Positions 1,765 through 47,953 of a stretch of DNA of 64,000 nt are shown here, one piece after another. The position numbers were made by a program, and so were the translations under genes. Numbering within the stretch: position 1 is the stretch's first letter; every line of letters starts with the position of its first letter. The stretch is from the NCBI GenBank assembly GCA_021414225.1, contig JAIOOX010000001.1, positions 6,624 through 70,623 of the forward strand, in the 5' to 3' direction. The DNA comes from Candidatus Vogelbacteria bacterium (GTDB lineage Bacteria; Patescibacteriota; Minisyncoccia; Phycocordibacterales; XYD1-FULL-46-19). The notes below the pieces were generated by a model. The model did not search any database and had not been told where the DNA came from. It saw nothing but the letters and a program-made list of their open reading frames with translations.

Positions 1765-1767
1765 AAT

Positions 1768-3075
1768 TTAAGAACCTTTAGCTGATAATAATAAAGCGAC
1801 TGTTTTTAAACCTATTTTTATATCCAACCAAATACTTCTATGCTTAATATAATACAGGTCGTATGATAATTTGTTGCGTGTCTCGACAACATCTAAACCA
1901 TGATGAGGATGGGCTTCATGATACATTTGAGCCCAACCAGACAAGCCAGGTTTAATGATATGACGAATATTGTAATAAGGAATCTGATTACTATATTTTT
2001 CAACTGGATCGGCAAACTCTGGGCGTGGACCAATCAAAGAAATATCTCCTCTTACAACGTTCCACAACTGAGGCAATTCATCAATCCTGGTCTTTCGTAA
2101 AATCTTACCAACCCTGGTTACTTTGTTTTTGTTCACAGCTCCCCACACTCCACCGTCGTTACTATTAGTCATCGTTCTAAATTTTATCAAATTAATTGGT
2201 TGATTGTTTTTACCAACTCGAGTTTGATATGAAAATAAAGGACCTGGTGTTTCTAGTTTTATTAAAACAAAAACAATTGGATATAAAATCAAAGATAAAA
2301 TCCCAAACACCAAACCAACCATCAAATCGGTTGTTCGTTTAAAAAAATCATAAAATGGTTTTGGTTGATTAGACAAATGTTCCAAGAACCAACGTTCACT
2401 AATGATCGAAACCGGGACTCGACCATAAACTTCTTCATAAATGTCTTCAATATTAGCAAAGCGGACTCCAGAAAAAAGCATTCGATAAAAGTTGGCAAAC
2501 AAAGGGGCACTAGCAGTGTCGTGGGAATTAAAGACAACCATCGACACCTCTTGCGGTAAAGCTCTAGGCTCACCATCCCGAACAGTAATCCCATACTTAC
2601 TATTCTTCGCAAAAGTCTGTCTTAACTCTTCAACTTCTGGGCCACCACAGGCAAACAAAATTGATTCTTGAGCTGGTCGAATAACAAAACCAACCCCTAA
2701 TCGACGCCACACCAACAAAATTAAACAAGAAACAACTAAAAATATGAATAGATTAGTTTTAGGAGTAATCCCAAAATAAGGAATCAGATAAAAGAATAGT
2801 AGTGCAATGATTATGTTGACCACCTGGGCATTGAGAATAGCACTAGTCAATTTTCTTTCCAAAAATAGAGTTCTAGACCCGTAAAGATCGTACATAAAAA
2901 AGACCAGACTCCAGAGAATAAAAATAATAGCAAATGGAGCTAGGTGATCAAAAAAAAGTTGAGTGCTTGGCCAGCCTAGATAACGAATAATAAGCGTCAA
3001 CCATAAGGCTATCGCTAGGGCAAGCAAGTCACCCAAGAACAAAAAAACTGTTTGAGTGGTAGTCCCAAAACGCAT
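1768..3075 (-). CDS. Polyprenyl-phosphate glycosyl-1-phosphate transferase (bacterial sugar transferase, WbaP-like initiating enzyme)
   Basis: N-terminal multi-TM region and a C-terminal bacterial sugar transferase domain (DELPQLWNVVRGDISLIGPRPE). Confidence 0.8.
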   Translation of the reverse strand: MRFGTTTQTVFLFLGDLLALAIALWLTLIIRYLGWPSTQLFFDHLAPFAIIFILWSLVFFMYDLYGSRTLFLERKLTSAILNAQVVNIIIALLFFYLIPYFGITPKTNLFIFLVVSCLILLVWRRLGVGFVIRPAQESILFACGGPEVEELRQTFAKNSKYGITVRDGEPRALPQEVSMVVFNSHDTASAPLFANFYRMLFSGVRFANIEDIYEEVYGRVPVSIISERWFLEHLSNQPKPFYDFFKRTTDLMVGLVFGILSLILYPIVFVLIKLETPGPLFSYQTRVGKNNQPINLIKFRTMTNSNDGGVWGAVNKNKVTRVGKILRKTRIDELPQLWNVVRGDISLIGPRPEFADPVEKYSNQIPYYNIRHIIKPGLSGWAQMYHEAHPHHGLDVVETRNKLSYDLYYIKHRSIWLDIKIGLKTVALLLSAKGS

Positions 3076-3135
3076 AAGTAGCCGAATAATACAACAAAAT
3101 AACCTTTTATGCTACCCTAGATACTAAGTACTATT

Positions 3136-4272
3136 ATGACTAAAAAAGTTCTATATTTAATCACTAAAAGTAACTGGGGTGGAGCCCAAAAGTATGTTTT
3201 TGACCTGGCCACCAACCTACCTAAAGACCAGTTTGAGACAGCTGTGACTAGCGGTGGCACCGGAGCCAAAGGAGCTGAGGTTGGTCAACTGGCCAATAAA
3301 CTAGCCGAGGTCAGCCTCCCTTTCTACCCGATCAAATCGTTCACTCGTGATATTTTTTTATTTAACGAACTAAAAGCTTTTTGGGAAGTGGGTTTGATTA
3401 TTAAAAAATATAGGCCAGACATTCTTCATGTTAATAGTTCTAAAGCGGCTGGTGTCGGTGGTTTCGTCGGGCGACTAATTGGTGTTAAAAAAATTATTTA
3501 TACCGTTCACGGTTGGCCTTTTAACGAACAGCGAAATTTTATCAGCAAATTCCTGATCTACTTTTTTTCGTGGCTAACCTGTTTTCTAGTTCATGAAGTA
3601 ATTGTGATCAACGAAAAAGATTTTGCGCAAGGCAAGAAAATGTTTCTAGTGGGTAAAAAAATGCATCTAATTTACAATGGTCTCGCTCCTATTTCTTTCC
3701 TGTCCCAATCAGAAGCTCGTAAAAAGTTAAGAGAAATAACTATCCACAATTTTTCTGATTCAGATTTAATTGTAGGTTCAATCGCTGAACTCCACCCCAA
3801 CAAAGGATTAAACTATTTGATTGAGGGAGTAGCGCAGGCACCAGAATGGAAATTAATAATAATTGGCGGTGGTCAAGAAAAAACCAATCTTGAAAAATTA
3901 ATCCAGAAACTCAATGCAACTGATCGAGTATTTCTAGCTGGCTTTGTCACCAACACTTCCACCCTACTCAAAGCTTTTGACGCTTCCGCTCTTGTCTCTC
4001 TCAAAGAAGGTCATCCTTACGCTGTGCTGGAATCGGGCCTCGCCTCACTCCCTGTTATTGGTTCAGACATTCCTGGCATTCGAGCGATTATTGACTCACC
4101 AGACAAAGGCATGTTAGTTCCCCCAGCCAACCCCCAGGCTATTACTGAAGCCCTAAATAAATTAGCCAACGACCCTACCATTCGACAGACTCAAGGCGAG
4201 AATCTCCAAAATAAAGTCCAATCAGACTTTAATATCGAAAAGATGATAAATAGCACCACTCAGTTATATTAG
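3136..4272 (+). CDS. Glycosyltransferase family 1 (GT4-type)
   Basis: 378 aa. The C-terminal GT-B domain carries an E-x7-E-like motif (ESGLASLPVIGSDIPGIRAII). Confidence 0.75.
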   Translation: MTKKVLYLITKSNWGGAQKYVFDLATNLPKDQFETAVTSGGTGAKGAEVGQLANKLAEVSLPFYPIKSFTRDIFLFNELKAFWEVGLIIKKYRPDILHVNSSKAAGVGGFVGRLIGVKKIIYTVHGWPFNEQRNFISKFLIYFFSWLTCFLVHEVIVINEKDFAQGKKMFLVGKKMHLIYNGLAPISFLSQSEARKKLREITIHNFSDSDLIVGSIAELHPNKGLNYLIEGVAQAPEWKLIIIGGGQEKTNLEKLIQKLNATDRVFLAGFVTNTSTLLKAFDASALVSLKEGHPYAVLESGLASLPVIGSDIPGIRAIIDSPDKGMLVPPANPQAITEALNKLANDPTIRQTQGENLQNKVQSDFNIEKMINSTTQLY

Positions 4273-7318: not shown

Positions 7319-7562
7319 TAGGTCTATGGTACCAAAAATCCCACCCTCTGGCGAGGATGGGATTTTTGATTTTAAGTTTTTGAATACTCTGTTCCGGCGA
7401 CAAGCTACTCTCCCGCATAGCAGTACCATCGCCGCTACGGTGCTTAACTTCTCTGTTCGGAATGGTAAGAGGTGTGACCACCGCGCCAAATCGCCGAAAC
7501 AGAACATTCAAACGCTTTTGAAAACTGTGATGGAAAGCCAACATAAATGTTGGCGAAAAAAT

Positions 7563-7639
7563 TGGAGCGGATGGTATGGGACTCGAACCCACGTCTCCTT
7601 ATTGGCAATAAGGCACTCTACCAACTGAGCTAACCCCGC
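7563..7639 (-). tRNA. tRNA-Gly (anticodon GCC)
   Basis: Minus-strand cloverleaf:
- D-arm GCTC/AGTTGGTA/GAGT
- anticodon loop TTGCCAA between CCTTA/TAAGG stems
- T-arm GTGGG/TTCGAGT/CCCAT
- encoded CCA and discriminator U
The 3' acceptor strand carries 2 extra nt (a non-canonical bulge). Confidence 0.75.
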
Positions 7640-7707
7640 CCGAAAAATTTTAGGGATATCCCATCACAATTTTCAAACTTTAGGTAAAACACTAAATTAA
7701 ATTGACT

Positions 7708-7765
7708 ACTCCGACAAATTAACTTGTCGGAGCGATTTGTAAAAATTTTAATTTTTACAAATCGC
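7708..7765 (-). other. Two adjacent perfect hairpins between the 23S 3' end and tRNA-Gly (processing or termination structures)
   Basis: H1: ctccgacaaattaacttgtcggag. H2: gcgatttgtaaaaattttaatttttacaaatcgc (14-bp stem). Confidence 0.5.
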
Positions 7766-7790
7766 ATGATTTTTAAATTTCCTAATAGGA

Positions 7791-10810
<3,020 letters not shown>

Positions 10811-11109
10811 TTTCCTATTAGGAAATTTAAAAACCATGTTTACAATTTTAGCCCTGTAACAATTTTATTTGTTACAAGTTTTGATTTAATGCTTACCTAT
10901 CCGCCTCCAGTATGGCAAAGACCCCAATTAAATTGGATAGCCATAAAGTGACGGGATTCAGTTATCAATGTTCCGATTCTTGGCTGAAAAAATTAAACCG
11001 CCTGTCAGGCGGATTTTAGGCACCTATGCAAAAAGCAAGAGTCCTTTAACCCGCGTGTTTTTGGTTTAATTTGATAATCATACTGACGCTCGTTAGTATA
11101 TACCCCACA

Positions 11110-11861: not shown

Positions 11862-11990
11862 AATATTCTAAAATAAAACTGTTATTGATAAAACGACCTA
11901 AAACTAATAATAAGTTACACCTACAATTATACCACGATTAGACCTTTTGCGGGGGGTAATGTGGATAATAATTAGCACAACTTAATCTCA

Positions 11991-13997: not shown

Positions 13998-15410
13998 TTA
14001 TCTACCAATTATATCGTGAATCATCTTAAAACCAAGACTTGGTATATTTTTAAAAGAATCATACCAGCTAGCCGGCTTATCTATTACGATTGAAATAGTT
14101 CCAACCCCAGCCACCTGATTAGAACTGGTAGAGCTCACTATTTTAGTGGGTTCATCCTCAACCGCTATTACTTTTTCTTTTTTAGCTAAAGATGATTGTT
14201 GAGGAGCTAAAGTATTTACTTGATTAGAAATCAAAGCCAACCGGGATTCTATTTCCGCTAGACTAGATACCAAATGATCACTTTGACCTGTTGTTATTAA
14301 TGGGTTTAAAGTAGTCGCCAAGTTTTTATTCTGGGGATCTTTCAAAAAAATATTTTGAGTGGTCGATCCAATCGTAAAACCCAAAATCCCAAAAGCCACT
14401 GGCAGATGACCACCAGGCACAATCAAGGTGTCGGTGGGAAAAACAAAGTCTTGCGAACCATCCCCTATCCTCCAATCACCAATATTAACTTCTCGGTTGG
14501 ATTTATTTTTTAAAATTAAATACCCAGACAAGAAGTCAATTACTTCTATCTCTACTTCTGGTTTAGTGACGACCACCCTAGTTCGCGAAACCGCTTTCTC
14601 GGTACCGGATACAGCGTTGAGAACTATCTCATAAGTACCGGGTAGGGCATAAGCATGTCTCACTGATTTACCTACATAGCTAGTCCCATCCCCAAAACTC
14701 CAAGTAAATGATGGGTTGAAAAAATCACCACCTCTTGTCACCACAGCATCAAAAGACACCAAGTTGCCAACCACACTTATTTGTTCTCGACCGGCGCTGA
14801 CTTCAAATTTTATGGGACTGGCGGTTGAACTAAGGGTCACCGAACTAGAGTGAGCTGAGGATGTCCCCCCACTAGAACTGTTGGTCGCGTTAGAGACTTC
14901 AGCAGTCACTGTGGTAGTCGAGGTGGTCGATGTTTCTTCCTCAGAATCACTGTCTCCATTAGGTAGCGAAACAGTTACTGTTTTTTGGTAAGTTTCCCAA
15001 TCGTTGTTTTCAGGCGACCATGTATCACAAGAAGTTGTTACTTCACTTGGTCGCAAAAAAGTTTTTAACGAGAAAACAGTCTCAGACACTCCATTTAAAC
15101 TAAAATAAAAATTACGATTACTGACCCCGTTTTCGTTTTTAGGGATATTACTTTTTATTTTAGACCCGATCTCAACTTTAGAACTACTGAAGAAAGTTCC
15201 TCCCGCTGAAGATTCTAATTCAAAACAAGTAGTTAACGTTCTAGAATTTAAGGCTCTAACTGTAATTGAGTTTTGCTCAGAAGCACCAATAATACTATTT
15301 CCTTCATCGTTACCCACTAAGACAATATATTCTCCATTAGCTAAAACCAACTTCGGTAAAAATACTAGATTTAAAATCACTAAACCGATTAAACAAAGTT
15401 TATTTGTCAT
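13998..15410 (-). CDS. Secreted protein with PKD and lamin-tail (LTD) domains
   Basis: Signal peptide after the adjusted start (MTNKLCLIGLVILNLVFL). PKD signature FGDGTSYVGKSVRHAYALPGTYEIVL. LTD-like block EVNIGDWRIGDG. Confidence 0.6.
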   Translation of the reverse strand: MTNKLCLIGLVILNLVFLPKLVLANGEYIVLVGNDEGNSIIGASEQNSITVRALNSRTLTTCFELESSAGGTFFSSSKVEIGSKIKSNIPKNENGVSNRNFYFSLNGVSETVFSLKTFLRPSEVTTSCDTWSPENNDWETYQKTVTVSLPNGDSDSEEETSTTSTTTVTAEVSNATNSSSGGTSSAHSSSVTLSSTASPIKFEVSAGREQISVVGNLVSFDAVVTRGGDFFNPSFTWSFGDGTSYVGKSVRHAYALPGTYEIVLNAVSGTEKAVSRTRVVVTKPEVEIEVIDFLSGYLILKNKSNREVNIGDWRIGDGSQDFVFPTDTLIVPGGHLPVAFGILGFTIGSTTQNIFLKDPQNKNLATTLNPLITTGQSDHLVSSLAEIESRLALISNQVNTLAPQQSSLAKKEKVIAVEDEPTKIVSSTSSNQVAGVGTISIVIDKPASWYDSFKNIPSLGFKMIHDIIGR

Positions 15411-15515
15411 CGTTTTAAATATTAAGACTATATCTATAATCTTAATCCTAGCTAAACCGACTGACAAAAATGTTTTCCCCACCCTATCAATACCAAGGAT
15501 AGCCCTCGCTAAAGA

Positions 15516-16556
15516 TTAGTATTTAATCTGATCAACAAGAAGGCCATTGGCATCATACAAGGTAATGGTTTCTCGCTCTTTTGCCCACATCTCCCAGACT
15601 TGACCCAAGTAAACTCGCCACTCCCCTTTGAAAAAATCGTCATCCCCTGAATGGTATTTTAAACAACTTTGGTAGTTGAAATGCTCTTTCAAATAATTTT
15701 TACACAAATTAGAGAAGCCATCGATACCATCGACGTAACTACCTCGGACCACTTCATTACCAATCCTCTTATAGTCCGAAATGTCAGGAGTCCGGCAACG
15801 CCCTAATCTCTGAGTGACATACTTGTAACATTTTTCCGCTAACTGCGGTACGCCAATTTCTTTTCGAGGGTCAGGACAAGTGAGTGGTAAAGACGGCACA
15901 AAATTATAATCAGGTGTCTGTTCAATATAACCAGTACACTTATTGGTTTTAAAGCTACGAGTAATATCAAAATCAGTACGAATTGCAGTAGGGCTACCCG
16001 TTGTCACAATGGCCCTCTCACCAGCCTTGAGAGTAATGGGACCCACCACATCATGGTCTAGCCCCGTAAATAAAACTGAACCGAAAGGAATAGCCACTCG
16101 TTTTGAGACACCTGTCACTATTTCACCATTTTGTTCATAATATCGATTATTAAATCCATTTTCCAAGATCCAACCGGAAATATTAACTTCTCCTTTATTA
16201 TTAGAAGCAGCTTGTAAAGTAATATATTCTTCACTGGAGCGGTAAGACGAACCAGCATTACCCCTCCCTAATTTTATTTTTCCCTTCCAAGGTGAGGTAG
16301 TAGAAAAACTATTATTGGAGTTACCAACACTGTTTGACCCAGACCCGGCAGAACTTTGGTTATTATTATCAATACTAGAACTATTATTTGGGTCAAAGTT
16401 AACTTTTGGTACAGCTATTTGCAACGAAGCTGGTGTTAAAAACAAAGACTCATTGCTCTGTTTTTTACTGATTTGACCACTACCAGTCCACAAAGCAAAC
16501 AAGGCTCCAATAACCAAAAAGAAAAAAAGTAAGTCATTTTGAAAACCTCCAGACAT
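15516..16556 (-). CDS. Secreted lamin-tail-domain (LTD) protein with a Cys-rich C-terminal domain
   Basis: N-terminal signal anchor, an Asn/Ser-rich linker, an LTD-like motif (GEVNISGWILENG), and a C-terminal region with 8 Cys. Confidence 0.5.
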   Translation of the reverse strand: MSGGFQNDLLFFFLVIGALFALWTGSGQISKKQSNESLFLTPASLQIAVPKVNFDPNNSSSIDNNNQSSAGSGSNSVGNSNNSFSTTSPWKGKIKLGRGNAGSSYRSSEEYITLQAASNNKGEVNISGWILENGFNNRYYEQNGEIVTGVSKRVAIPFGSVLFTGLDHDVVGPITLKAGERAIVTTGSPTAIRTDFDITRSFKTNKCTGYIEQTPDYNFVPSLPLTCPDPRKEIGVPQLAEKCYKYVTQRLGRCRTPDISDYKRIGNEVVRGSYVDGIDGFSNLCKNYLKEHFNYQSCLKYHSGDDDFFKGEWRVYLGQVWEMWAKERETITLYDANGLLVDQIKY

Positions 16557-16627
16557 AAGATTATATTAATTGTACTACAAAATTAACCAGTCTGACTATT
16601 GATTAGAGTCTGAAAACAAAAAACTAA

Positions 16628-18133
16628 TTACTGAGCTTTGACTTCAATCTTGTCGCCAGCCACCAAACCCTCAATCACCTCCACTAGACCATTATCACCA
16701 TAGATACCCAATTTGACGGGAGTGGCAACCACTTGGCCGTTAATGTATTTTTTCACAGTTGATACTCCTTTGTCAGTGGTAATAGCATAGACAGGCACAA
16801 CCACTACCTGATCTTTAGAATCAGTGGTAATAGATAAATTAGCGGTCAGACCATTTTTTAAGCGCTCGTCTTTTTCAGTAAAAGAGACTTTGATTTTGTA
16901 GTTAACCACCCCATCGATCAAAGTTTCAGCTGGATCAATATAGAAAACCTCGCCAGAAAAATTTTCACCAGGAAAAGCGTCCAAGGTAATGGTCGACTTC
17001 TGACCTACTTTTATTTTACCAATATTTATCTCCGGAATATTAGCTTCCACTTCGAAGGAATCAGGATTAAGGATGGAGACCAAAACTTCACCAGCAGAAA
17101 CCGATTCACCCACTTTAGCTTCTTGTTTGGTAACGACACCCGAAATAGGTGCCGTTAAAGACAACTTCGAAAGGAGGGCTTGCTTTTCAGCTACCTGAGC
17201 TTCTGCTTGTTTAATCTGAGCACTCTGAGTTGAAACTTGCCCGTTGCTCAACTCCGCCGCACTTAGACGAGCACTATTCCAATCTTGACTAAATGAAGAA
17301 ATATTGGAAATTTTTTCATTAACGCTTGTCCGAGCTGAGGAGATTGTGGATTTATAGTTATTAATAGTCGATAAATAACTATAGTCCCCAGTATCAAAAG
17401 AATTAACTCCTAAAGAAATATCATCTAACAATGTCTGTATCGCTTCTAGTCTATTGCGAGTAATATTGATAGATTTTTCTTTATCTTTTAGAAAATCTGG
17501 ACCATAAATATCTGCTTTCCACTCTTCGAGGATGCGGTCAACCCTTCTCTTGCCAGTTGAAATTTTACTTCTTAAAACGTAATCATTTGTACTCAAGCTA
17601 ACACTCTGACCATTATCATAAAACTGAATTTCAAATGAAGGTGAGGATGAATTGGGATTTTTAAAAAATTGATTTACATAGTTCTTTAAAATATCATCGG
17701 CCGAAAAATAGGCACCACGCAAAGAGTCATCTAAATTTCTCTCCACATCTCCTAAAGATATTTTAGAGTCATTCAGTTTTGCTTTCTGATAATCTAGATT
17801 AGCTTGAGTTGAACTCAACTCCGCATAAGCTTTATTTTTATCCAGACTAACTAAAATCTGACCAACTCCAACAGTGCCACCTACCCGAGGACCAACAAAT
17901 GAAACTAAACCCGTTTGCTCAAAAGCTAGGTCAACATAACTTTCCGCCCTAGTTTCTCCGGCCACCGAGACAGTCTGAGTAATAGGTCCAGCCGACACAG
18001 AATAACTCTCGACTGCATTACTAGTATTTCTTAAAAAGAAAAAGGCTATCAATGCCAGAGCTAAAATGGACAGTCCCCCTATCCACCAGTATCTTTTTCT
18101 TAGTTTAAATTGTTTTTCAAAAATATTTATCAT
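16628..18133 (-). CDS. HlyD-family membrane fusion / periplasmic adaptor protein
   Basis: N-terminal TM anchor, a long coiled-coil, and beta-barrel/lipoyl-like motifs (LTAPISGVVT, ITLDAFPGENFSGEV). Confidence 0.7.
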   Translation of the reverse strand: MINIFEKQFKLRKRYWWIGGLSILALALIAFFFLRNTSNAVESYSVSAGPITQTVSVAGETRAESYVDLAFEQTGLVSFVGPRVGGTVGVGQILVSLDKNKAYAELSSTQANLDYQKAKLNDSKISLGDVERNLDDSLRGAYFSADDILKNYVNQFFKNPNSSSPSFEIQFYDNGQSVSLSTNDYVLRSKISTGKRRVDRILEEWKADIYGPDFLKDKEKSINITRNRLEAIQTLLDDISLGVNSFDTGDYSYLSTINNYKSTISSARTSVNEKISNISSFSQDWNSARLSAAELSNGQVSTQSAQIKQAEAQVAEKQALLSKLSLTAPISGVVTKQEAKVGESVSAGEVLVSILNPDSFEVEANIPEINIGKIKVGQKSTITLDAFPGENFSGEVFYIDPAETLIDGVVNYKIKVSFTEKDERLKNGLTANLSITTDSKDQVVVVPVYAITTDKGVSTVKKYINGQVVATPVKLGIYGDNGLVEVIEGLVAGDKIEVKAQ

Positions 18134-18182: not shown

Positions 18183-20177
18183 TTATATTTGTCTAAAAAA
18201 GAATAAGTCCAGGTCTGGAAAAGTTTTAATAGATTTTTCTACGTAAGCGACCACCTCCTGACTCTGTTTAATTTTAGGATTAAGCGCCAAACCACGACTA
18301 GAAAACTCTCTAGCCAAATCAAACTTTCTCATATAAACATAAGCGACGGCTTTCATCCAGTAAGGTTGGGGACTTTGGGGAACTAGTTCTATCGCTTTAT
18401 CTAGAACCTGCTGGGCCTCGACTAGATTGTTATCACCAAATAACATCGAGTAAATTAAAACATCAGCCAAACCTAAATGGGCTCTAAAATTATCCGGATT
18501 ATTTTTTAAGTACTCTCTATACTCATCCTTGATGATCAACAACTCCTGTCTGATACTTTCTACTTTTTTAGGGTTTTCTAAAACCTTAGGATTTTCAGCC
18601 ACCCCTCTCTGGAAATCAGTCATCGTTCTCCATAAAATAGCTTGTTTATCAATTTTCGATCCAAACAAAGCTGGGTAAAGTGGAATTCTTTTGTCTGTAT
18701 CACCCACCATCCTCAACTGCCCATTAGCCACCTGTGAGTTTAGAAAAGGATACAACCCGTAAATTAAAGAAAAAATAGTAAGAATGGTGACCACTCCAGC
18801 AGATAAGTACTGACCCACTAGTCCAAACTGTATTTCTTTATTTTGGTAAGACCAATTTCTGTGGAACAGTACCGCAGCGGACACAAACATAAAACCTAGG
18901 ATTGGATAGGAGATCGAAGTGTCAAAAGCGGTTTGTAGTTCTAATAAATGTAGCGGAAAGTAAACAGCCAAAATCACTGCCAATAATTTATCCTCTTGCT
19001 CTGAGGCGTTTAGAGCCACATAGATCAAAGATAGTAGAGAGACTATGTAGACCAATAAATAGAGGCTCAAGCCCACCAGACCATTGTCCACCAATTGATC
19101 AATAAAGATATTGTGGGCCCGATCAAACCAGGCCTCCCCTCCATATTCATTCTGTAGTAACCGATTATCATAGTTAACCTCAAACACTCTTTCAAAATTA
19201 TCCTGACCAAAACCTAGATAAGGCCTTTGGGAGATGGCTTGCTCAGAAACTGACCACACCAAAGGTCTAGCCGCAGAGGATTGACTCAAGTAAAAATTAC
19301 GGACCAACCCCCCAGAAGACAGCAGAGAGAAAATAAGAAATACTATCCCAATAAACACACCCCCAGCCAAAGTATAACTTAATATTGATCTTAATTTATG
19401 ATCTTTAATTTTAGCTAGCAACCAAACAAAAATTAAACTAACCAGGGATAGGATAACAACGTAGGTGGTCGCTCGGGCTTCGCCAATTATACCGTCAGAA
19501 AAATCGCCTCGCCAAATTTTGCTACTTATAATATAAGGATTTACCAGTAAACTAACTGGTAGTAGATACAGCCACCATTTCTTAACTTTTTCTTTAGCTA
19601 CAAAATAAACAGACAACATAAAAGTAGCAAAAAGATACATCGCCGCGAAACTGGAGTTACCAAAAGTAAAACCGTCGTTTGGATTAGATTTGAACAATAA
19701 ACCTAGACCCTCTGGACCTAATACTGACAAGATGGAGTAGAAACTAGTTGATAAACAAATAATTAAAATAAGCCGGTCATGTTTAGACCGATCATTAACT
19801 ATAACAAGACTCATTAAAACCAAAACAATACCTAGACTGATAAAATACCAAAGCCCAGTCATTCGAGTAATCACCGACCAAAATGAGTTAGATAAACTTA
19901 AACCCAAAAAACCCGATAAACAAACAGATCCCAGATACAAGGTTAAAGATAAAAAGATGGGTGATTTAGCTATAACCAGCTTTCTTTTGCTTGAAAAAAT
20001 AAAACCCAAAAAAACCAAACTAAGCAGTATTGAAAAAATTACTAAATTAACAGATCTAGTGGTTGACCCAGAGTATAAAAAAGAACCGTACAAGATAAAT
20101 GGAAAAGACCCAAAAAACAAATAGATTAAATATTCTATAACCACTAAATACGAGGACTTTTCTTTGTTTATTAGCAT
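18183..20177 (-). CDS. O-antigen ligase-like (Wzy_C) polytopic membrane protein with C-terminal TPR repeats
   Basis: About 12 TM helices with a large loop, and a C-terminal TPR region (LGLADVLIYS..., YWMKAVAYVYM...). Start set at the internal ATG 20177 to avoid a 120-nt overlap with the upstream gene. Confidence 0.6.
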   Translation of the reverse strand: MLINKEKSSYLVVIEYLIYLFFGSFPFILYGSFLYSGSTTRSVNLVIFSILLSLVFLGFIFSSKRKLVIAKSPIFLSLTLYLGSVCLSGFLGLSLSNSFWSVITRMTGLWYFISLGIVLVLMSLVIVNDRSKHDRLILIICLSTSFYSILSVLGPEGLGLLFKSNPNDGFTFGNSSFAAMYLFATFMLSVYFVAKEKVKKWWLYLLPVSLLVNPYIISSKIWRGDFSDGIIGEARATTYVVILSLVSLIFVWLLAKIKDHKLRSILSYTLAGGVFIGIVFLIFSLLSSGGLVRNFYLSQSSAARPLVWSVSEQAISQRPYLGFGQDNFERVFEVNYDNRLLQNEYGGEAWFDRAHNIFIDQLVDNGLVGLSLYLLVYIVSLLSLIYVALNASEQEDKLLAVILAVYFPLHLLELQTAFDTSISYPILGFMFVSAAVLFHRNWSYQNKEIQFGLVGQYLSAGVVTILTIFSLIYGLYPFLNSQVANGQLRMVGDTDKRIPLYPALFGSKIDKQAILWRTMTDFQRGVAENPKVLENPKKVESIRQELLIIKDEYREYLKNNPDNFRAHLGLADVLIYSMLFGDNNLVEAQQVLDKAIELVPQSPQPYWMKAVAYVYMRKFDLAREFSSRGLALNPKIKQSQEVVAYVEKSIKTFPDLDLFFFRQI

Positions 20178-20199
20178 ATGTTTTATTATAAACCACTGT

Positions 20200-20245
20200 T
20201 TGTAAAACAACAAAAAACCGCCCAATCGGGCGGTTTTTTGTTGTT
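20200..20245 (-). terminator. Bidirectional hairpin terminator downstream of the surface protein gene
   Basis: aaaaaaccgcccaatcgggcggtttttt. Confidence 0.6.
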
Positions 20246-20280
20246 TTACAACAATTACAAAGTAACGAACTCTACTATAA

Positions 20281-22257
20281 TTAGTTAAGAGTTGCGTTAA
20301 CCTTAAATGAGTTAAGGTTTGAAGTGTAAGCGTTGTTTGGAGTAGCGTCAGTCTCATCAGTTGTCCAACTAACACCTCCCAATTTAACTTGGAAGTTGCC
20401 ACTAGAACCAGCTGCTGGCAATGAAACGGTTGTAGTCAACTCAAATGTTGCACTTTCACCATCTTCAATTGTCCAAGTACCAGCTGAAGTTACTGTAGGC
20501 TCTACAGTGTCCACGTTAATAATACGAGTTGATACACCACCAACAGTGGCAGTACCATTTCGATCAACGTTAACAGTAGTGTAACCAGCTGTAACACCAG
20601 TAAGTTGTTTATCTGACAGTGATGATACGTAAATAGTATCACCACTTGCAGTTACCTTAAACTTGATGACGAAATCACCAGAGTCGTTATTCGCTACAGC
20701 GTTATCGGCTACAGGTTTAGGAGTAACACTAACCAATGTCAAACTAATACCACTGGTTCGTAATTCTTGAGCTTCACCAGTAGCAGTACCTGATTTCTCT
20801 GAAGAGTCAGAAAGTTGATCACCTTCTTCGTTTTCAACATCCATCAAGTTACGGTTACTTGTAGTAACATCAGCCTTCAAAGTAGCACCGTTTACGAAGA
20901 TTGAGCCGTCAACATCGTTAACATCAGCTAATACTTCGAATTCAACAGTATCACCAGCATCTAAAGCTAGATCAAGGTTGTCGAAAGTTACAGTACCAGC
21001 AAGAGCGGCAGTTACACTCATGGTTTCAGTGTATTCCTTACCATCAATCTTAAGTGTTACTGAACCAGCAATGTCATCAACACCGTTAGCAGAACCACCG
21101 TTAGCAGTAGCTGTGAAAGTTACAGGGAACTCATCAAGAGTTGCATCTGAAGTACCTTCAAGCTTTAGCTTACCCTTAAGCAAAGTAACGTTATCAGTAT
21201 TTGATGAATCATCAACTTCAACGATACCAGCTTCTGGACTGTCTGAGTCAGTAGAGATCTTAAGTTCAGTATCAGCTGAACTTGAGAAACTAACGAAATC
21301 AATAGACACATCCATACCGTCAATATCACCAGTTGAAGTGTCTGTAGTTGAAACACCAGAACCATCAACGAAGCGAATACTGTCAATATCAACTGTCCAA
21401 GAATCACCTCCAATATCACCAGAATCTAGGTTATTAGCAGCATCAACTGAAATGAACAATTGAGCTGTTTTGTCAGCCTTGATTACAGCATTGGAAACAG
21501 AAATAGTTTTTGAGTAAACACTTCCATTTTCAGTGAAGTCATCTACATCAGCTGAGCCGATTTTAGTAGAACCCAACCAAATAGAAACTGAATCAATATA
21601 ATCATCAAGATTATCTGAACCAGATGTACCAGTTGAATCAAAACTTACTTTAACAGCAGTGATAGAAATATCACCGTCGTTAGAAGCCTCTACATCAGCT
21701 CCTAATACTTTAACACCCTCTTCACCATCACCTACCTCTTCACTGTTGTAAGAACCAAGTTCATCAACATCTGAAAGAGTTCCGAATGAACCAGTCAAAG
21801 GACCAGTAGTTGCTGGAGTACCAGGAGTTGCTGGAGTACCAGGAGTACCAGCCATAGCGTTAAGCGCGGTTCGTGAGATAGGACCCACGTAACCAGCTGC
21901 TGGAGAAATACCAGCAGCAGCTTGCCACTTAGCAACAGCTGCTTGGGTCAAAGGACCAAAGTTGCCATAAGCAACACCAGCAGGCATAACCAAGTAACCC
22001 TTAGCAACCAAAACTTTTTGAAGTTCAGTTACATCAGCACCAGTAGAACCGATAGTCAAATTACTAGTAAATTGGTAACCACCAGTAGATGTACCAGTAG
22101 TGGTTGTACCACCTTGTAGCTGAGCAATCATTGCTGTTAACTGAGCAATTTGGGCCTTAAGTGCATCAACATCAACTGTTTGAGCACTAGCAGGAACTGC
22201 TACAGCAACAAGCATGAAAGCGGCAACTGCCAAAGCAGAGATTTTTTTCATACTCAT
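20281..22257 (-). CDS. Large secreted surface protein with two PG_binding_1-like domains and a Ser/Thr/Asp-rich beta-rich region
   Basis: Signal peptide MKKISALAVAAFMLVAVAVPASA. Peptidoglycan-binding-like segments (TELQKVLVAKGYL..., AVAKWQAAAGI). PGTPATPGTPAT repeats. About 500 aa of low-complexity D/S/T-rich sequence. Confidence 0.6.
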   Translation of the reverse strand: MSMKKISALAVAAFMLVAVAVPASAQTVDVDALKAQIAQLTAMIAQLQGGTTTTGTSTGGYQFTSNLTIGSTGADVTELQKVLVAKGYLVMPAGVAYGNFGPLTQAAVAKWQAAAGISPAAGYVGPISRTALNAMAGTPGTPATPGTPATTGPLTGSFGTLSDVDELGSYNSEEVGDGEEGVKVLGADVEASNDGDISITAVKVSFDSTGTSGSDNLDDYIDSVSIWLGSTKIGSADVDDFTENGSVYSKTISVSNAVIKADKTAQLFISVDAANNLDSGDIGGDSWTVDIDSIRFVDGSGVSTTDTSTGDIDGMDVSIDFVSFSSSADTELKISTDSDSPEAGIVEVDDSSNTDNVTLLKGKLKLEGTSDATLDEFPVTFTATANGGSANGVDDIAGSVTLKIDGKEYTETMSVTAALAGTVTFDNLDLALDAGDTVEFEVLADVNDVDGSIFVNGATLKADVTTSNRNLMDVENEEGDQLSDSSEKSGTATGEAQELRTSGISLTLVSVTPKPVADNAVANNDSGDFVIKFKVTASGDTIYVSSLSDKQLTGVTAGYTTVNVDRNGTATVGGVSTRIINVDTVEPTVTSAGTWTIEDGESATFELTTTVSLPAAGSSGNFQVKLGGVSWTTDETDATPNNAYTSNLNSFKVNATLN

Positions 22258-22795
22258 AAATAAATAATATGTGAACTAATAATTTTAATTAACTAATCAA
22301 CCTTTTTATACTTCAAGACTTTACTGATTGTTTCCAATCTCAAATCCCAAAGTACGCACCATCTCAACTTTCGACGGTTTGACATAGTGCAGTTTGATTT
22401 CGATTTTTATTAACCTTGAACTACCTACTCCGCATTATATTAATGGTGCGTTTTGACAGCCAAGGGTTAATAAACAAAAGGGAAGAAATCTGATCGGCAG
22501 ACAGATAGATCGTGACGGAATTTATTTTTAACCTTATTTAATTTTCAAAGTTCAGTCAGCCGGACAACTAGCGACCAGATTACAACGTCAAAGATTATTA
22601 TACTATTGTCCAGCCTCACCCACCAAATTGATGGGCTTAATAATGTGGATAAGTAACAGTATTTTGACTCTGACGATCTCTGGAGGTTGTTTATTTTCCA
22701 CCAGTTCTCAGGCTCTAGTTTAACCTAAAATGGTCAAATAGTCAACGAAAACGTCTCCCTTTGCCCTAGACTTGAACACATGAAAATAATTATTT

Positions 22796-23605
22796 TTAAG
22801 AGACAAGCGTATAGCGACTCCACCGTCTATCCCCCTTTTTTCTAAGTAGTCCTTTTTCTACCATCAAAGACAAGTCACGTTGGATGGTTTTCATACTACA
22901 TTCCGGAACTACTGTGGCTATGTCCTTTATGGATAACCAACCTTTGTCTTTTAGAAAAGAAACAATCTTATCGTGTCTATCATTTTTTAAACCAGATTCA
23001 ACTTCTAACTTATCAGTCGCCTGTCGGTCTGAAGTTTTGTCTTTAATATTTCCGGTTTTTAATTCTTTGGAAAAAGACTGACCTTGAGGTAAATTTTTGG
23101 CGTTAGAAACTGTCCCTAAATAAGCTCTATCAGTCACCTGATTTTGGGTTGGCAAACTAGAATAACCAGGTTGTCGATCATAACCCGACAACATAAACAG
23201 GCGCATCGATTCACGAACCGAAGCATTAATATTATCAGCCAATTTTTGGTATTCCTCTCTAAGTAAAACTAAATTCATGGTGGAAACAGTTCCAGCCGAG
23301 ACCGCAACCGATACAAGGGTATTTAGATCGTTAATAGATTTGACTAAAGTATCAACATCAATGTTTTTATAAAAGACAAAGTCCTGACCGTAATCAGCCA
23401 TGTGCTCTGTTTCCACTTTTTTAATATCAGACAAAATACCTAAAGCTGATTCGCGTAACTTCCACTTCAACGGCTCGCTGTCCGATAAAAGCGAGGTCAC
23501 CAAATACAACGCCGAAGTTAGTCTTTCTGTTTTTAAGACAACAAAACCAAAGGCGGTATTATCCTTCAAAGTCAGGTTAGTTTGGTTGTCCTTTGTGTTG
23601 TCCAT
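22796..23605 (-). CDS. Hypothetical protein with a C-terminal winged-helix DNA-binding domain
   Basis: The C-terminal 60 aa (IVSFLKDKGWLSIKDIATVV...RDLSLMVEKGLLRKKG) resemble a DeoR/HrcA-type wHTH. Confidence 0.45.
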   Translation of the reverse strand: MDNTKDNQTNLTLKDNTAFGFVVLKTERLTSALYLVTSLLSDSEPLKWKLRESALGILSDIKKVETEHMADYGQDFVFYKNIDVDTLVKSINDLNTLVSVAVSAGTVSTMNLVLLREEYQKLADNINASVRESMRLFMLSGYDRQPGYSSLPTQNQVTDRAYLGTVSNAKNLPQGQSFSKELKTGNIKDKTSDRQATDKLEVESGLKNDRHDKIVSFLKDKGWLSIKDIATVVPECSMKTIQRDLSLMVEKGLLRKKGDRRWSRYTLVS

Positions 23606-36990: not shown

Positions 36991-39900
36991 TTAACGTAAA
37001 GCCAAAGAGAAAGATCGACCATCAATCAATAAACTATCAACCCCTGTTATCAGTTCAAACACGATCGATCGAGAGTTGGTTACTCGCAAAATTTCGGTTT
37101 GGTACTTTTCTACTAAAATCTGACTGTCTGGATCAGTACTAATTACCACACTAACAATATCAGTTGGTAATAAACCATTACTTTTACGCAATTCTTGAAT
37201 ATGTCGAATCAAATCTCTAACCAAACCTTCTTCTTTTAACTCAGAGGTAATATTTGTATCCAACTGGACAGGTTCGGACAGGGTCTCATCAACCGAAACA
37301 TTTTTTACATTAACCTCTTCAGCGATCATGACTAAGTAGGCCGGACTTAATGTCTTTTTAATCATCAATTGAGCTAGTGGTTGGCGAACTTTAATTCCCG
37401 CTTCAGCTCTCAAGCGCAATCCCTGCTCAACAATAATTCTAGCTTCGGCCATATCAGCAATCACTACTTCATCAAAAGAAGTGGCCACAGGCCAGTCAGT
37501 TAGGTGGACACTAATTTGATCTTCGGGATTTTTTAATTTTTGGAAAATATCTTCAGCTATAAACGGTGTAAGCGGGGCCATTATTTTAGCTAAGACAAGT
37601 AAGACGTGACTAGTGGTTATTTTGACCAAAGTCCGATCTTTTATATCTTCACTTTTAAACCGATCTCGACTACGACGAATATACCAATTGGACAAGTCAT
37701 CAATAAAGTCATCAATTGGTCTAACCGCTCGGTCCAATTCATAGTTATCCAGCGCTTTACCCACCTCTAAAGTGACCTGGTTTAGTCGGCTGGTAATCCA
37801 AAGATCTAAAATGTTGTCAGATTTTTCAGAACCAATCTTCAGATCTTTATCTGCATACATTTCATAGAAAGAAATTACGTTTTGCAGTCGAGCAATGACT
37901 CGCCGACTAGTCTCACTCAGAGTTCGCTCTGAAAAAGCAAACTCCTCCGCTCTAACTGATGGACAACCCAATAAATAAAAGCGTAAAGCATCAGCCCCAT
38001 ATTTATCAATTGTCGGATGAAGGTCTGGATAATTTTTCAATTTCTTACTCATCTTTTGACCGTCTTCCGCCAAAATCAAACCATTCACAATCACATTTTT
38101 AAATACCGGTTTATTAAACAAAGCCGTCGACAAAACAGACAGCGAATAAAACCAGCCTCGAGTTTGGTCTAAACCTTCAGCAATAAAATCAGCTGGGAAA
38201 TTTTGATTAGTCTCAGGATCAAACTGGTTTTTATCTCCAAACGGATAATGCGCTTGGGCGTAAGGCATCGATCCAGACTCAAACCAGCAGTCAAACACAT
38301 CAGATACTCGAATAAGATTTCCACCACATGAACAGGTCCACTTAAATTCATCAATGTATGGGCGATGAAGATCTAACTCATAATTTTTATTATGAGGATA
38401 TGACCTAACCACCGCCTCTCTAGCTTCACCAGTTTTGAAATACAAGTCACTCCATTTTTCTATTTTTAATAAGTCGTCAATTGTTTTGAAATTCAAATAC
38501 TGTTCCGCCAAGAACAGTGGTAAACCATGAGAAACAACCAGGATTGTTTCATTTTCATGACTATTATTAATATCCATGATAGCACCCAACATTCGAGCTG
38601 ATATTTCATGAATAGTTTCCCCTCCAGGTAAAGCCTTAAAGAAACGTTCATTTCTATTTTTAAACTGGGCATTAAATTCCGCCCAAGGTTTACCATTAAA
38701 GCCCCCGGTTTTAAGTTCTCTTATTTTCTCTTCAGTAACAATATCCTCGATTGGAAAACCGATCGTCTCCGCCACCAATTTGGCTGTCTCTTGAGTCCGC
38801 ACAAATGGTGAGGCAAAGATTTTAGTTATACCTATATCTTTCAAACCACTCGCTGTTTTTGATACCTGACTCCTACCAGTCTCACTTAATTTATTAACTT
38901 CAGTTGGATCATCACTAATAACATCTCGAACATTACCACCAGCTTCACCATGGCGCATCAAAATAAATTTATTTCCACGAGTTGGAAGTTTGCTCACCAA
39001 ATCCTCCACCGAACCAAGGACTTCGCTTTTTTCACAAGAATCACATTTCCAGACCGGCAGTGGTGCTCCCCAAAAACGGGATCGAGAAATAGCCCAATCG
39101 CGAGCCCCTTCTAACCATTTACCGAACCTCCCATCTTTAATATGATCGGGAATCCAGTTGATCTGCTGATTATTAGCAATTAGCTTATCTTTAAAATCAG
39201 TTACTTTTACAAACCACGACGAGGAGGCGTAGTTGAGAAGTGGTGTATCACAGCGCCAACAGTGAGGATAGGAGTGGACGATTTTTTCTTTGGCAAATAA
39301 CACCTCTTTGGCGGCTAGTAGTTTAATCACTTCAATATCAGTCGCCTGGTGGTCGTCTTTTGGTTTAGCTTGTTTACCAGCCAGATCAGTCACTTCTAGT
39401 TTGAATTCCCCGTTGGTGCCCACATGCTGAATAAAAGGCAGATTGTATTGCTGACCCAACTTCATATCATCTTCACCAAAAGCCGGTGCAATATGGACAA
39501 TCCCTGTCCCATCTTCAGTTGTCACAAAATCAGCTCCATAAACTTGCCAACCGTTATCACGATTGACTAATTTTTCATCTTTGGAGTAATGATCAAATAC
39601 TGGTTTATATTTTTTACCAACCAATTTTTCCCCATTAAATTGTTCAACGATTTCATAATCACTCTTCAGGTTTTTTTCAACTAAGTTTTTGGCGAGAATA
39701 TAAAATTTACCATCCTTAACCACTTTCACATATTCAACTTCTTTGTTAACCGCCAAAGCCACGTTACCAGACAAGGTCCAAGGTGTCGTTGTCCAAGCCA
39801 ATAAATAGGTCCCTGGTTCATCAACTAGTTCAAATTTTACTGTCACTGAGATATCAGTAATGTCTTTATAGCCCTGATTAACTTCAAAGTTAGATAAAGT

Positions 39901-46789: not shown

Positions 46790-46916
46790 AACACCCAGAC
46801 TTGTTTTGAGACTTTATTTGTTTTCTAAAATACCACCCTCCCCCAGAAAGCCTTGCTGCCAAAAGTCTGAACCAGTCCAATTAAGATACCTAGTCATTTT
46901 TTCCGAATGTGGATAA

Positions 46917-47407: not shown

Positions 47408-47953
47408 TTAAATCTTCTTAACCTGCAAGAAGTCTAGTTCGACTGGAGTTTCGCGTCCAAACATAGACACCAATACCCTGACCTTACCTCTTTCATTGTC
47501 GATCTCACTAACCTTTCCTTCAAACTCTTTAAACGGACCATCCACAATAGTGATAGATTCCCCAACCACTAGATCAATAGCGTGCTTAGCTGAATCGTCA
47601 CCCATTCGACGGAATAGCTCATCAACCTCTTTCTTTTCTAGTGGTACCGGCACAGTTCCCGCTCCAATAAAACCAGTTACTCGAGGTGTATTTCGAACCA
47701 CATACCAAGAATCATCAGTAACAATCATATCTACCAAAACATAACCAGGATAAATTTTCTCTTCAATGGTCACTCTCTTGCCACCTTTAATTTTAACTTT
47801 GTTTTCACTAGGAACTAAAACATTAAAAATCTTATCTTCCATCCCTAAAGATTCAATACGTTGTTTCAAATTCCGAGCTACAGCATTCTCATAACCTGAA
47901 TAAGTATGAATAGCATACCAATTACGTCCTTGATCTAATTCTTGTTTAGCCAT
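47408..47953 (-). CDS. nusG: Transcription termination/antitermination factor NusG
   Basis: NGN domain (WYAIHTYSGYENAV) and a C-terminal KOW (GESITIVDGPFKEFEGKV). Confidence 0.9.
   Translation of the reverse strand: MAKQELDQGRNWYAIHTYSGYENAVARNLKQRIESLGMEDKIFNVLVPSENKVKIKGGKRVTIEEKIYPGYVLVDMIVTDDSWYVVRNTPRVTGFIGAGTVPVPLEKKEVDELFRRMGDDSAKHAIDLVVGESITIVDGPFKEFEGKVSEIDNERGKVRVLVSMFGRETPVELDFLQVKKI

Follow-up and report, generated by a model that had tools for sequence, protein, structure and literature searches.

Genes for bacterial O-oligosaccharyltransferases (O-OTases) frequently adjoin those of their targets (PMC3643930). WsfB, the O-OTase of a surface layer (S-layer), and PglL carry a C-terminal TPR region, and the S-layer gene and wsfB, each monocistronic, can lie close together (PMC2943079). 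In TfpW the TPR domain is periplasmic, and the tfpW gene stands downstream of pilA. PilO is an O-OTase despite missing both PglL_A and Wzy_C_2, and the Wzy_C family (PF04932) spans ligases, polymerases and O-OTases (PMC3643930). The antitermination motif boxA, GYTCTTTAANA in Escherichia coli (PMC5725501), has been documented outside ribosomal RNA (rRNA) operons in suhB and CRISPR leaders (PMC5725501, PMC7665894). Here we describe a locus that combines features of these systems in a window of 64,000 nucleotides, the whole stretch of DNA that was analysed, from a metagenome-assembled genome of Candidatus Vogelbacteria, an uncultured, ultra-small member of the Parcubacteria/Paceibacteria. It comprises the gene of a secreted surface protein (SP), the gene of a membrane enzyme with Wzy_C and TPR domains (Wzy_C-TPR) and a long gap upstream of SP, all on the minus strand, as is the DeoR-like gene beyond the gap:

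20281..22257, minus strand: SP gene, encoding a 658-aa secreted acidic wall protein
18183..20177, minus strand: Wzy_C-TPR gene, encoding a 664-aa WaaL-fold enzyme with a C-terminal TPR domain
22258-22795, minus strand: gap upstream of SP, 538 nt
22796..23605, minus strand: DeoR-like gene, encoding 269 aa with a C-terminal DeoR-type helix-turn-helix (Pfam HTH_DeoR, E 1.6e-5)

We read this locus as a conserved envelope module of the Paceibacteria, made up of a wall protein, a WaaL-fold enzyme and a linked lipid-carrier glycan pathway, in which SP would be O-glycosylated. A probability of about 0.45 is assigned to this reading. The DeoR-like neighbour is a possible regulator of the locus. No description of the module was found in the literature searched.

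The domain order of SP is a signal peptide, a helix (residues 30-47), a PG_binding_1 domain, a disordered Thr/Pro-rich linker (residues 137-152) and three beta-sandwich domains (AlphaFold, pLDDT 77.6). Threonine accounts for 12.5%, serine for 10.6% and aspartate for 9.4% of the residues, cysteine is absent, and there are 90 acidic and 30 basic residues, in keeping with the 658-aa secreted Ser/Thr/Asp-rich protein proposed in a preliminary description of this stretch. That description had also given SP two peptidoglycan-binding-like domains and a low-complexity sequence, neither of which held. PG_binding_1 is present in a single copy (aa 72-126 by Pfam), seen as one three-helix bundle in the AlphaFold model, and it was the sole domain recovered by NCBIfam and by a PDB profile search, so that a second such domain is excluded by all four. 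Sequence entropy is 2.9-3.6 bits per 40-aa window, and disorder is confined to two short Ser/Thr/Pro/Gly linkers at about residues 49-60 and 136-155; the linker that joins the anchor to the beta domains is present throughout the family.

All homologues come from Parcubacteria/Paceibacteria. The homologue search for SP, in which 8,000 candidates were scored, gave at least 505 significant matches; among the best 120 of these, identity is 48-67%, length is 600-692 aa save for a few shorter, probably partial entries, and the only annotation is 'peptidoglycan-binding protein'. Across Kaiserbacteria, Nomurabacteria, Vogelbacteria and other Paceibacteria SP identity is 50-67%, comparable to that of FtsK. 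The structural search returned generic Ig-like, cohesin-like or carbohydrate-binding-module-like matches. SP is secreted and bears a wall-anchoring module, as is expected of a bacterial S-layer protein, and its codon usage is the most deviant of the 58 open reading frames (ORFs) in the window (third-position T 0.55 versus 0.29-0.49). SP is probably a strongly expressed, peptidoglycan-anchored wall protein, its high expression being our inference; it is an S-layer candidate, or at minimum a candidate major wall protein.

Two further features of the SP family were observed. The extreme C-terminus (aa 644-658, encoded at 20281-20325) follows the pattern ...YTSNLDSFKTSYxxLN-COOH, in which Y644, S646 and L657 are invariant and N658 nearly so, a possible signal for sorting, assembly or secretion. 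In the homologues P0024, P0027, P0037, P0051 and P0092 the linker between the peptidoglycan-binding and beta domains holds one or two Cys-bracketed modules of about 20 aa with the pattern C-x2-G-x2-[FY]-S-x2-T-G-x2-C (alignment columns 210-260), which do not occur in the window SP.

The second gene was confirmed as encoding a Wzy_C membrane protein with a C-terminal TPR region, as had been described. The Wzy_C domain was matched at aa 235-374 with E 5.7e-14 (52.6 bits against a gathering cut-off of 31.7), and TPR families were matched by Pfam in the C-terminal part, the TPR domain comprising aa 494-664. The true start, the ATG at 20177, makes the product 664 aa long, in agreement with an independent gene call and 25 orthologues, by which a 739-aa ORF overlapping SP was recognised as an ORF-finder artefact. 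A database entry 100% identical to the product is named 'O-antigen ligase family protein [Candidatus Vogelbacteria bacterium]'. No NCBIfam subfamily name could be adopted, the matches being far below threshold (best PEP_O_lig_1, 29 bits against a cut-off of 188).

The AlphaFold model of Wzy_C-TPR (pLDDT 85.5, pTM 0.87) found its best Foldseek match in WaaL (7tpg_B, E 1.2e-5, TM-score 0.57 on the target). The model, hydropathy and the positive-inside pattern gave about 13 transmembrane helices, nine preceding a large outer loop and four coming after it. In WaaL, three helices follow the loop and the C-terminus is cytoplasmic. Nine helices before the loop and four after it would put the TPR domain of Wzy_C-TPR on the outside of the cell and next to the catalytic loop, a topology reasoned by hand. 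Within the outer loop R304 and H355, 51 residues apart, are invariant in 26 orthologues. The known pairs are R298/H349 in PglL, spaced 51, and R288/H338 in WaaL, spaced 50, with an upstream arginine at R215/R224 (PMC3643930). Sequence similarity of the enzyme to WaaL is marginal (full-length profile E 0.026), and alignment of the two by single sequence and by a 7-sequence profile of the transmembrane part gave no match. The putative equivalence of R304/H355 to the WaaL/PglL pair is drawn from spacing and invariance.

A synteny scan with one genome per species yielded 61 loci. The usual order is RecA, a 113-aa ORF and FtsK, all divergent, then the DeoR-like gene, the long gap, SP and Wzy_C-TPR. 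In the fetched DNA a clear Wzy orthologue lies downstream of SP at 41 of the 61 loci and a weaker Wzy-like match at 6, with none at about 12. In about 54 loci the gap has a DeoR-like homologue immediately on its upstream side, and gene order, long gap and the motifs described below recur together in about 54 species-level loci, beyond chance. Where genes have been inserted, Wzy still lies no more than about 1.5 kb from SP (L011, L033, L041, L042 and L059). The window also encodes three glycan-building enzymes, identified by Pfam:

853-1764, minus strand: sugar epimerase
1768-3075, minus strand: phosphoglycosyltransferase (Bac_transf)
3136-4272, plus strand: family 4 glycosyltransferase (GT4)

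Epimerase, GT4 or phosphoglycosyltransferase genes come right after Wzy in at least 12 loci, and GT4 or phosphoglycosyltransferase homologues follow it in L011, L012, L028, L033, L036, L041, L042 and L056. At L033 the order is SP, an unknown gene, Wzy, epimerase, GT4 and a methyltransferase-like gene (this last recognised by eye), and at L041 it is SP, an unknown gene, Wzy, GT4 and methyltransferase. At L011 Wzy is followed by GT4, with a phosphoglycosyltransferase homologue on the other strand, while L012, L028 and L056 have two or three GT4 genes after Wzy. At L037 SP itself is followed by four GT4 genes and one GT2 gene. Relatives of the window epimerase, 51-55% identical, stand immediately 3' of Wzy in L018 and L038 and, at L051, about 1 kb past the weaker Wzy-like match. 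In the window the three genes lie about 14 kb from Wzy with rRNA genes between; since epimerase relatives and glycan genes adjoin Wzy in other loci, they may be assigned to the same pathway, and they are plausibly the donor-glycan genes, detached in this genome. Comparative genomics supports a glycoconjugate locus. The preliminary description had placed an epimerase, an initiating phosphoglycosyltransferase and a GT4 at 853-4272, all of which Pfam recovered, and had paired the surface protein with a Wzy_C-plus-TPR transferase fed by lipid-linked glycan; the pairing is backed by synteny in 41 of 61 loci and by glycan genes in at least 12.

Several other genes occur around SP and Wzy. Lineage-specific genes inserted beside SP encode a secreted 430-aa protein with C-terminal repeats 'VKYTG..NDRD' (L011:8004-9296, L042:7854-9170), a cytoplasmic protein of 320-340 aa with no Pfam match (L033:7933-8967, L041:7995-8969) and, where Wzy is missing, LCAT-like lipase-domain proteins of 830-890 aa (L035:8276-10951, L044:8183-10669). 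Directly 3' of Wzy in the window, the minus-strand stretch 13998-18133 encodes an RND/HlyD-type periplasmic adaptor (501 aa) whose pump partners are absent and two secreted Lamin-tail-domain proteins, one also with a PKD domain. Of the genes 3' of Wzy only the Lamin-tail/PKD proteins recur near SP, in some loci (e.g. L008, L029, L039, L045 and L052).

The gap upstream of SP is itself a conserved feature, 313-1280 nt long across the loci. Leader motifs were counted in the about 54 species-level loci and promoter spacings in 42 loci, and terminators and promoters between SP and Wzy were compared in 33 loci. The following signals were located or predicted in the window:

22644..22652, minus strand: TTATCCACA element, upstream of the SP promoter
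22597..22626, minus strand: predicted sigma-70-type SP promoter, with -35 TTGGTG at 22626..22621, an 18-nt spacer and -10 TATAAT at 22602..22597
22258..22590, minus strand: predicted SP 5' untranslated region (5' UTR), about 330 nt, AU-rich
22535..22553, minus strand: boxA-like element GAACTTTGAAAATTAAATA in the transcribed SP leader, 26.8 bits
22355..22391, minus strand: GUCGAAA-loop hairpin, apical loop at 22375..22369, the window copy of the leader RNA motif
20200..20251, minus strand: SP intrinsic terminator, with a 24-bp stem, GATT loop and T-run
20185..20213, minus strand: predicted Wzy promoter, with -35 TTGTTG, a 17-nt spacer and -10 TATAAT ending 7 nt before the ATG
10955..10973, minus strand: boxA-like element GAACATTGATAACTGAATC of the 23S rRNA leader, 16.0 bits, with the 23S 5' end about 135-150 nt further on

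Of the 33 loci compared, essentially all have an equivalent of this terminator after SP, a GC-rich hairpin and a T-run, and in most of them TATAAT stands 6-7 nt ahead of the Wzy ATG. That TATAAT ends so close to the ATG implies that the predicted Wzy mRNA is leaderless. By these signals SP and Wzy_C-TPR are separate transcription units. On the upstream side of SP, a layout of TTGCAx, 17-19 nt and TATAAT downstream of the TTATCCACA 9-mer is predicted in the 42 loci, placing the predicted SP transcription start in the window near 22590; the median predicted SP 5' UTR across these loci is 360 nt. The top match of a promoter scanner in the gap (TTGGCT-18-TATAAT, 22463..22434) was discarded, as it lies downstream of the conserved elements and is unsupported by other loci. 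No clear Shine-Dalgarno sequence precedes the SP ATG, the last 30-40 nt being AU-rich. The leaderless Wzy (20175-20213, minus strand, with the equivalent site in about 30 loci) and SP without Shine-Dalgarno hint at unusual translation-initiation signals in this lineage.

The preliminary description had taken the gap for a leader of about 540 nt and had allowed that it might contain an unannotated protein gene. A gap of 538 nt does exist, but it is intergenic and the predicted promoter leaves a 5' UTR of about 330 nt; a protein gene was rejected, since ORFs in the gap do not exceed 32 aa, and what was found there instead are regulatory elements of both DNA and RNA. Rfam gave no credible match to the window leader (the one sub-threshold match, to a Caenorhabditis snoRNA family, scored 23.5 bits where the cut-off is 70 and is regarded as chance), nor to the leaders of L010 and L032, where only chance matches to terminators were seen. 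Folding of the whole SP leader is unexceptional compared with shuffles (z -0.9).

One conserved leader element is a 19-mer with the consensus G[A/T][T/A]C[A/T]TTGA[A/C]AAYNNAATA. It resembles E. coli boxA, GYTCTTTAANA (PMC5725501). A scan of both strands of 702 kb of loci with a 19-mer weight matrix (>=16 bits) placed 48 matches in SP gaps and 3 outside them, of which two lie in 23S leaders, and the two best matches in the window are GAACTTTGAAAATTAAATA in the SP leader and GAACATTGATAACTGAATC in the 23S leader. The motif beats shuffled controls in nearly all SP gaps and is scarcely seen outside SP and 23S leaders in the 1.4 Mb scanned. It is always on the sense strand, 10-163 nt past the predicted -10 box (42 loci). 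The 23S leaders of L035, L040, L057 and L062 share it, 120-190 nt before the mature end. The motif is also close to GTTCTTTGAAAACTGAAT, a nested PCR primer for mycoplasma detection, of which the paper gives the primer alone (PMC3019172). The comparison with Gram-positive boxA was made with this primer. We take the target of GTTCTTTGAAAACTGAAT to be the 16S-23S spacer. NusG is encoded in the window at 47408-47953. In the 23S leaders of the window (about 10985-11010, minus strand) and of L004, L035, L040, L057 and L062, a GC-rich hairpin with a T-run was observed 20-30 nt upstream of the boxA-like motif; this terminator-like structure resembles an attenuator, or else a boxB-like hairpin, before an antitermination site.

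A hairpin with a GUCGA(A/U/C)A apical loop was found in about 49 of the 54 SP leaders. In an ungapped alignment of 18 sequences anchored solely on the loop, pairing at the 14 stem pairs reaches 77% versus 52% after shuffling, the covariation score is 0.76 versus 0.31 for shuffled and 0.21-0.37 for slid controls, and all 14 pairs are changed on both sides; a MAFFT alignment of 28 hairpins was discarded for spurious gaps. All 26 matches of the resulting covariance model (E <= 1, 766 kb) lie in SP leaders, 8 of them outside the seed alignment; generic hairpins that it reported in the window proved to be terminators. The local fold of the window hairpin has a z-score of -2.5. The hairpin has no fixed position, most loci having it 31-270 nt ahead of the ATG, while the loop is invariant, which suggests that a specific factor recognises it and that it does more than simply protect the 5' end. 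In the leaders of L003, L005, L010, L059 and L060 an 11-codon upstream ORF, M-x-x-W/R-S-I-P-x-x-V-G-stop, lies exactly over the GUCGAUA hairpin (e.g. L010:2118-2153). It is confined to one clade. As its variable codons are the covarying stem positions, RNA structure is the preferred explanation over a leader peptide. An rRNA-type antitermination element together with a specific hairpin would, we infer, explain the long leader better than the rule 'long UTR = S-layer gene' alone.

The third element is the 9-mer TTATCCACA, which we take to be the DnaA-box consensus. The exact 9-mer is present on the sense strand in 43 of the 54 SP-upstream gaps. Between it and the -10 box lie 29-34 nt at 38 of the 42 loci; the remaining four, the window (41 nt) among them, have 40-41 or 51 nt. 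Because the spacing shifts in steps of one helical turn, it has the signature of a site for a protein bound to one face of the helix, the binding factor being predicted. A role as the -35 element was ruled out, since TTATCCACA sits 6-10 nt upstream of a separate -35-like box, in fixed phase. Two further exact copies in the window, at 11960-11968 and 46908-46916 (both minus strand), are intergenic and sense-oriented; they precede a mechanosensitive-channel gene, upstream of 23S rRNA, and a dCMP deaminase/ThyX/SHMT/Tmk/dUTPase operon.

Taken together, these results are consistent with the following working model. SP would be held on peptidoglycan by its single PG_binding_1 domain, with the three acidic beta-sandwich domains displayed outward. 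It would be expressed from a monocistronic unit consisting of the phase-locked TTATCCACA, a sigma-70-type promoter, the 5' UTR of about 330 nt, the coding region and a strong terminator. Processive transcription of this long leader, which is not translated, would result from a NusB/S10/NusG antitermination complex that the boxA-like element may recruit, and the GUCGAWA-loop hairpin is probably a protein-binding or mRNA-stabilising element. Wzy_C-TPR, transcribed separately as a putatively leaderless mRNA, would most likely act as an O-OTase that moves an undecaprenyl-pyrophosphate-linked glycan, built by the phosphoglycosyltransferase, GT4 and epimerase, to Ser/Thr residues in the SP linkers at about 49-60 and 136-155. 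The extra transmembrane helix would set the TPR domain outside, near the catalytic loop, where it could hold the protein substrate for glycan transfer.

A more far-reaching proposal joins all parts: SP mRNA as a non-rRNA client of ribosomal antitermination, with DnaA-box-tied transcription and dedicated O-glycosylation. Here boxA and the GUCGAWA hairpin would form a nut-like site that termination-proofs a leader without Shine-Dalgarno, and the phase-locked TTATCCACA would be an activator site coupling SP transcription to replication or growth state; TTATCCACA is found also ahead of the operon of dTMP synthesis. We regard this combination as quite unlikely to hold in full. If true, the Candidate Phyla Radiation would gain its first defined protein-glycosylation system.

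A number of results weigh against the module reading, and two other explanations of the enzyme draw on them. O-OTases, WaaL ligases and Wzy polymerases are indistinguishable by simple sequence comparison (PMC3643930). In the profile comparison with the PglL, TfpO and Wzy_C families to which the preliminary description had pointed, Wzy_C was above its gathering score, but neither PglL_A (PF15864) nor Wzy_C_2 was matched in Wzy_C-TPR at E <= 0.01. The upstream R235, candidate counterpart of WaaL R215, is not invariant, being Q or L in some orthologues, and no flippase was found near the window glycan genes. The main rival, possible though on balance doubtful, is that Wzy_C-TPR is a polymerase or ligase of a wall polysaccharide (a secondary wall or teichuronic-acid-like polymer), with the TPR domain handling the polymer or a partner protein, and that its adjacency to SP reflects clustering of wall-protein and wall-polymer genes, as with S-layer and anchor-polymer genes in Firmicutes. 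That Wzy_C holds WaaL ligases and some Wzy polymerases inseparable in sequence from O-OTases speaks for it, as do the closest structure, a ligase using a glycolipid acceptor, the missing PglL_A, the separate SP and Wzy transcripts and the clusters of three to five glycosyltransferases (L012, L028 and L037), which fit a repeat-unit polymer. TPR domains also occur in the polysaccharide export machines PelB, BcsC and AlgK. However, a Wzx flippase, a chain-length regulator and an LCP ligase were none of them seen in the window regions scanned, PG_binding_1 binds peptidoglycan itself rather than a secondary polymer, and Wzy_C with a C-terminal TPR has been reported specifically for the S-layer O-OTase WsfB. 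Wzy is also tightly and widely next to one secreted protein with Ser/Thr linkers, mirroring pilA-tfpO/tfpW and comP-pglL. This adjacency alone is weak evidence because the surrounding gene order is widely conserved: the frozen order extends well beyond the SP-Wzy pair, with RecA, FtsK and L10 nearby, and about 12 loci hold SP without an adjoining Wzy orthologue. It may thus be that the two genes are neighbours by inherited order, with SP unglycosylated and Wzy serving other targets (e.g. type IV pilins) or a general system. The synteny spanning RecA, the 113-aa ORF, FtsK, the DeoR-like gene, SP, Wzy and L10, the loci without neighbouring Wzy, and the independent promoters with a terminator between the genes agree with this, and Neisseria PglL, unlinked to pilE, has many substrates (PMC3643930). 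Yet after rearrangement Wzy stays 1-1.5 kb from SP (the five loci with inserted genes), glycan genes join the SP-Wzy block, and at L037 glycosyltransferase genes come immediately after SP; we consider inherited order improbable.

The module reading leaves the nature of SP and of its leader to be weighed separately. That SP forms no two-dimensional lattice, and instead has a conserved structural or scaffolding role in the wall zone or serves as a host-attachment adhesin, is a serious possibility that falls only somewhat short of even odds. Neither homology nor a fold match to known S-layer proteins was found for SP, solved S-layer structures being unmatched, and its anchor is PG_binding_1 rather than SLH or CWB2. 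S-layer proteins usually diverge fast, and the conservation of SP, FtsK-like at 50-67% identity across Paceibacteria groups, is unusually high for one. Its codon bias is no proof of high expression because ribosomal protein genes do not share it. On the other side, the acidic, Cys-free composition rich in Thr, Ser, Ala, Gly and Val, the signal peptide, the monocistronic unit, the long leader, the strong terminator and the codon bias fit an abundant envelope protein, and S-layers have been reported on some Patescibacteria (PMC13293708; bioRxiv 2024.05.28.596244). As for the leader, NusB, S10 and Rho were not located within the window, and the covariance model misses the window's own hairpin, an irregular copy. 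An unlikely alternative is that the boxA-like 19-mer is a DNA-level operator, for example for the DeoR-like protein, rather than a Nus RNA site, and that the leader serves only mRNA stability or translation; in its favour are the conserved helix-turn-helix regulator gene that is always upstream, the partial match to E. coli GYTCTTTAANA, the putative nature of NusB binding and the variable motif-to--10 distance of 10-163 nt. An operator is hard to reconcile, however, with 48 sense matches against 0 antisense in SP gaps, the lack of dyad symmetry, the constant position downstream of the predicted -10 box, the close match to the mycoplasma primer GTTCTTTGAAAACTGAAT (PMC3019172), and the sole other homes of the motif, the leaders of 23S rRNA, where it stands in the classical place of boxA, 120-190 nt ahead of the mature 5' end.

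Elsewhere in the window, an rRNA unit at 7392-10820 (minus strand) contains 23S, tRNA-Gly and 5S, and no 16S gene is present in the window; the 23S gene is 3040 nt long against a 2925-nt model, which suggests an insertion. A class I aminoacyl-tRNA synthetase of 1157 aa is encoded at 36991-40464 (minus strand) and has a complete His_Phos_1 (histidine phosphatase) domain inserted at aa 501-651. It is presumably IleRS; the Pfam family covers the Ile, Leu, Met and Val enzymes.

Paceibacteria/Parcubacteria are among the most abundant uncultured bacteria and their envelope mediates host attachment, and no molecular description of the Paceibacteria envelope was found in the literature searched. The locus supplies a candidate main wall or S-layer protein, a candidate dedicated transferase and likely glycan-building genes, which are targets for metaproteomics, fitting in cryo-electron tomography and heterologous reconstitution. 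To our knowledge, little is known of promoters and RNA regulation in Paceibacteria; the leader supplies testable elements in the phase-locked TTATCCACA, an rRNA-type boxA on an mRNA and a covarying hairpin outside Rfam. Wzy_C-TPR could also be of interest for bioconjugate engineering, should it prove to be an O-OTase of relaxed glycan specificity.

The S-layer glycosylation systems of Paenibacillus alvei (SpaA/WsfB) and Geobacillus stearothermophilus (SgsE/WsaB/WsaA) share with this locus a monoderm-type envelope. WsfB, like the present enzyme, is a Wzy_C-domain transferase with a C-terminal TPR, whereas in Geobacillus the TPR protein WsaA is adjacent. In these systems, as here, a monocistronic surface-protein gene is found near separate genes for the O-OTase, glycosyltransferases, an epimerase and an initiating phosphoglycosyltransferase (PMC2943079). 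In contrast to SpaA and SgsE, SP, which has no detectable sequence relationship to them, is anchored by PG_binding_1 instead of SLH. An ABC transporter (Wzm/Wzt) and rml genes were not seen here, and the glycosyltransferase genes are about 14 kb off in this genome.

The pilin O-OTases of Proteobacteria, PglL, PilO (TfpO) and TfpW, are polytopic with a large extracytoplasmic C-terminal domain, which is TPR in TfpW and PglL, as in Wzy_C-TPR. Their genes, too, lie immediately 3' of and co-oriented with that of a secreted protein, the abundant substrate there and a candidate one here. In the Wzy_C region of both PglL and Wzy_C-TPR an Arg and a His are spaced by about 51 residues, and the acceptor sites of pilin O-OTases are flexible segments rich in Ser, Thr, Ala and Pro, like the SP linkers. 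Unlike in the pilin systems, the candidate substrate is a 658-aa wall protein, a terminator separates the two genes, and PglL_A and Wzy_C_2 are undetected; TfpW is ArnT-like, whereas Wzy_C-TPR is WaaL-like. WaaL of Cupriavidus metallidurans (PDB 7TPG) belongs to the same Pfam family and has in common with Wzy_C-TPR the nine helices, the large outer loop and, putatively, the conserved Arg and His; Wzy_C-TPR differs by one additional C-terminal helix and a 170-aa external TPR domain, and the sequence similarity is marginal, as given above. A further difference from WaaL is that Paceibacteria are not known to possess an outer membrane or a lipid A-core acceptor.

On the regulatory side, the boxA systems of rrn, suhB and CRISPR transcripts resemble the SP leader in that a short motif of single-stranded type, whose core is CTTTGA(A/C)AA, lies within a long leader that is not translated, and the SP motif occurs in the organism's own rRNA leaders, as boxA does. 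The precedent concerns boxA ahead of transcripts other than rRNA on which ribosomes give poor protection (PMC5725501, PMC7665894). The SP consensus differs from GYTCTTTAANA, the target here is a surface-protein mRNA, and binding is predicted. Lactobacillus slpA, Thermus slpA and E. coli ompA have long leaders with a stable hairpin that stabilises the mRNA. These leaders and that of SP likewise place a hairpin in a long leader before an envelope-protein gene, very highly expressed in their case, but the SP hairpin has an invariant GUCGAWA loop and a variable position and is joined with a boxA-like element and TTATCCACA. The locus may be regarded as a variant of known systems: its glycosylation part would resemble those described, and what is new is the leader architecture, with a boxA-like element on a surface-protein mRNA, the hairpin motif and a phase-locked DnaA-box-like site.

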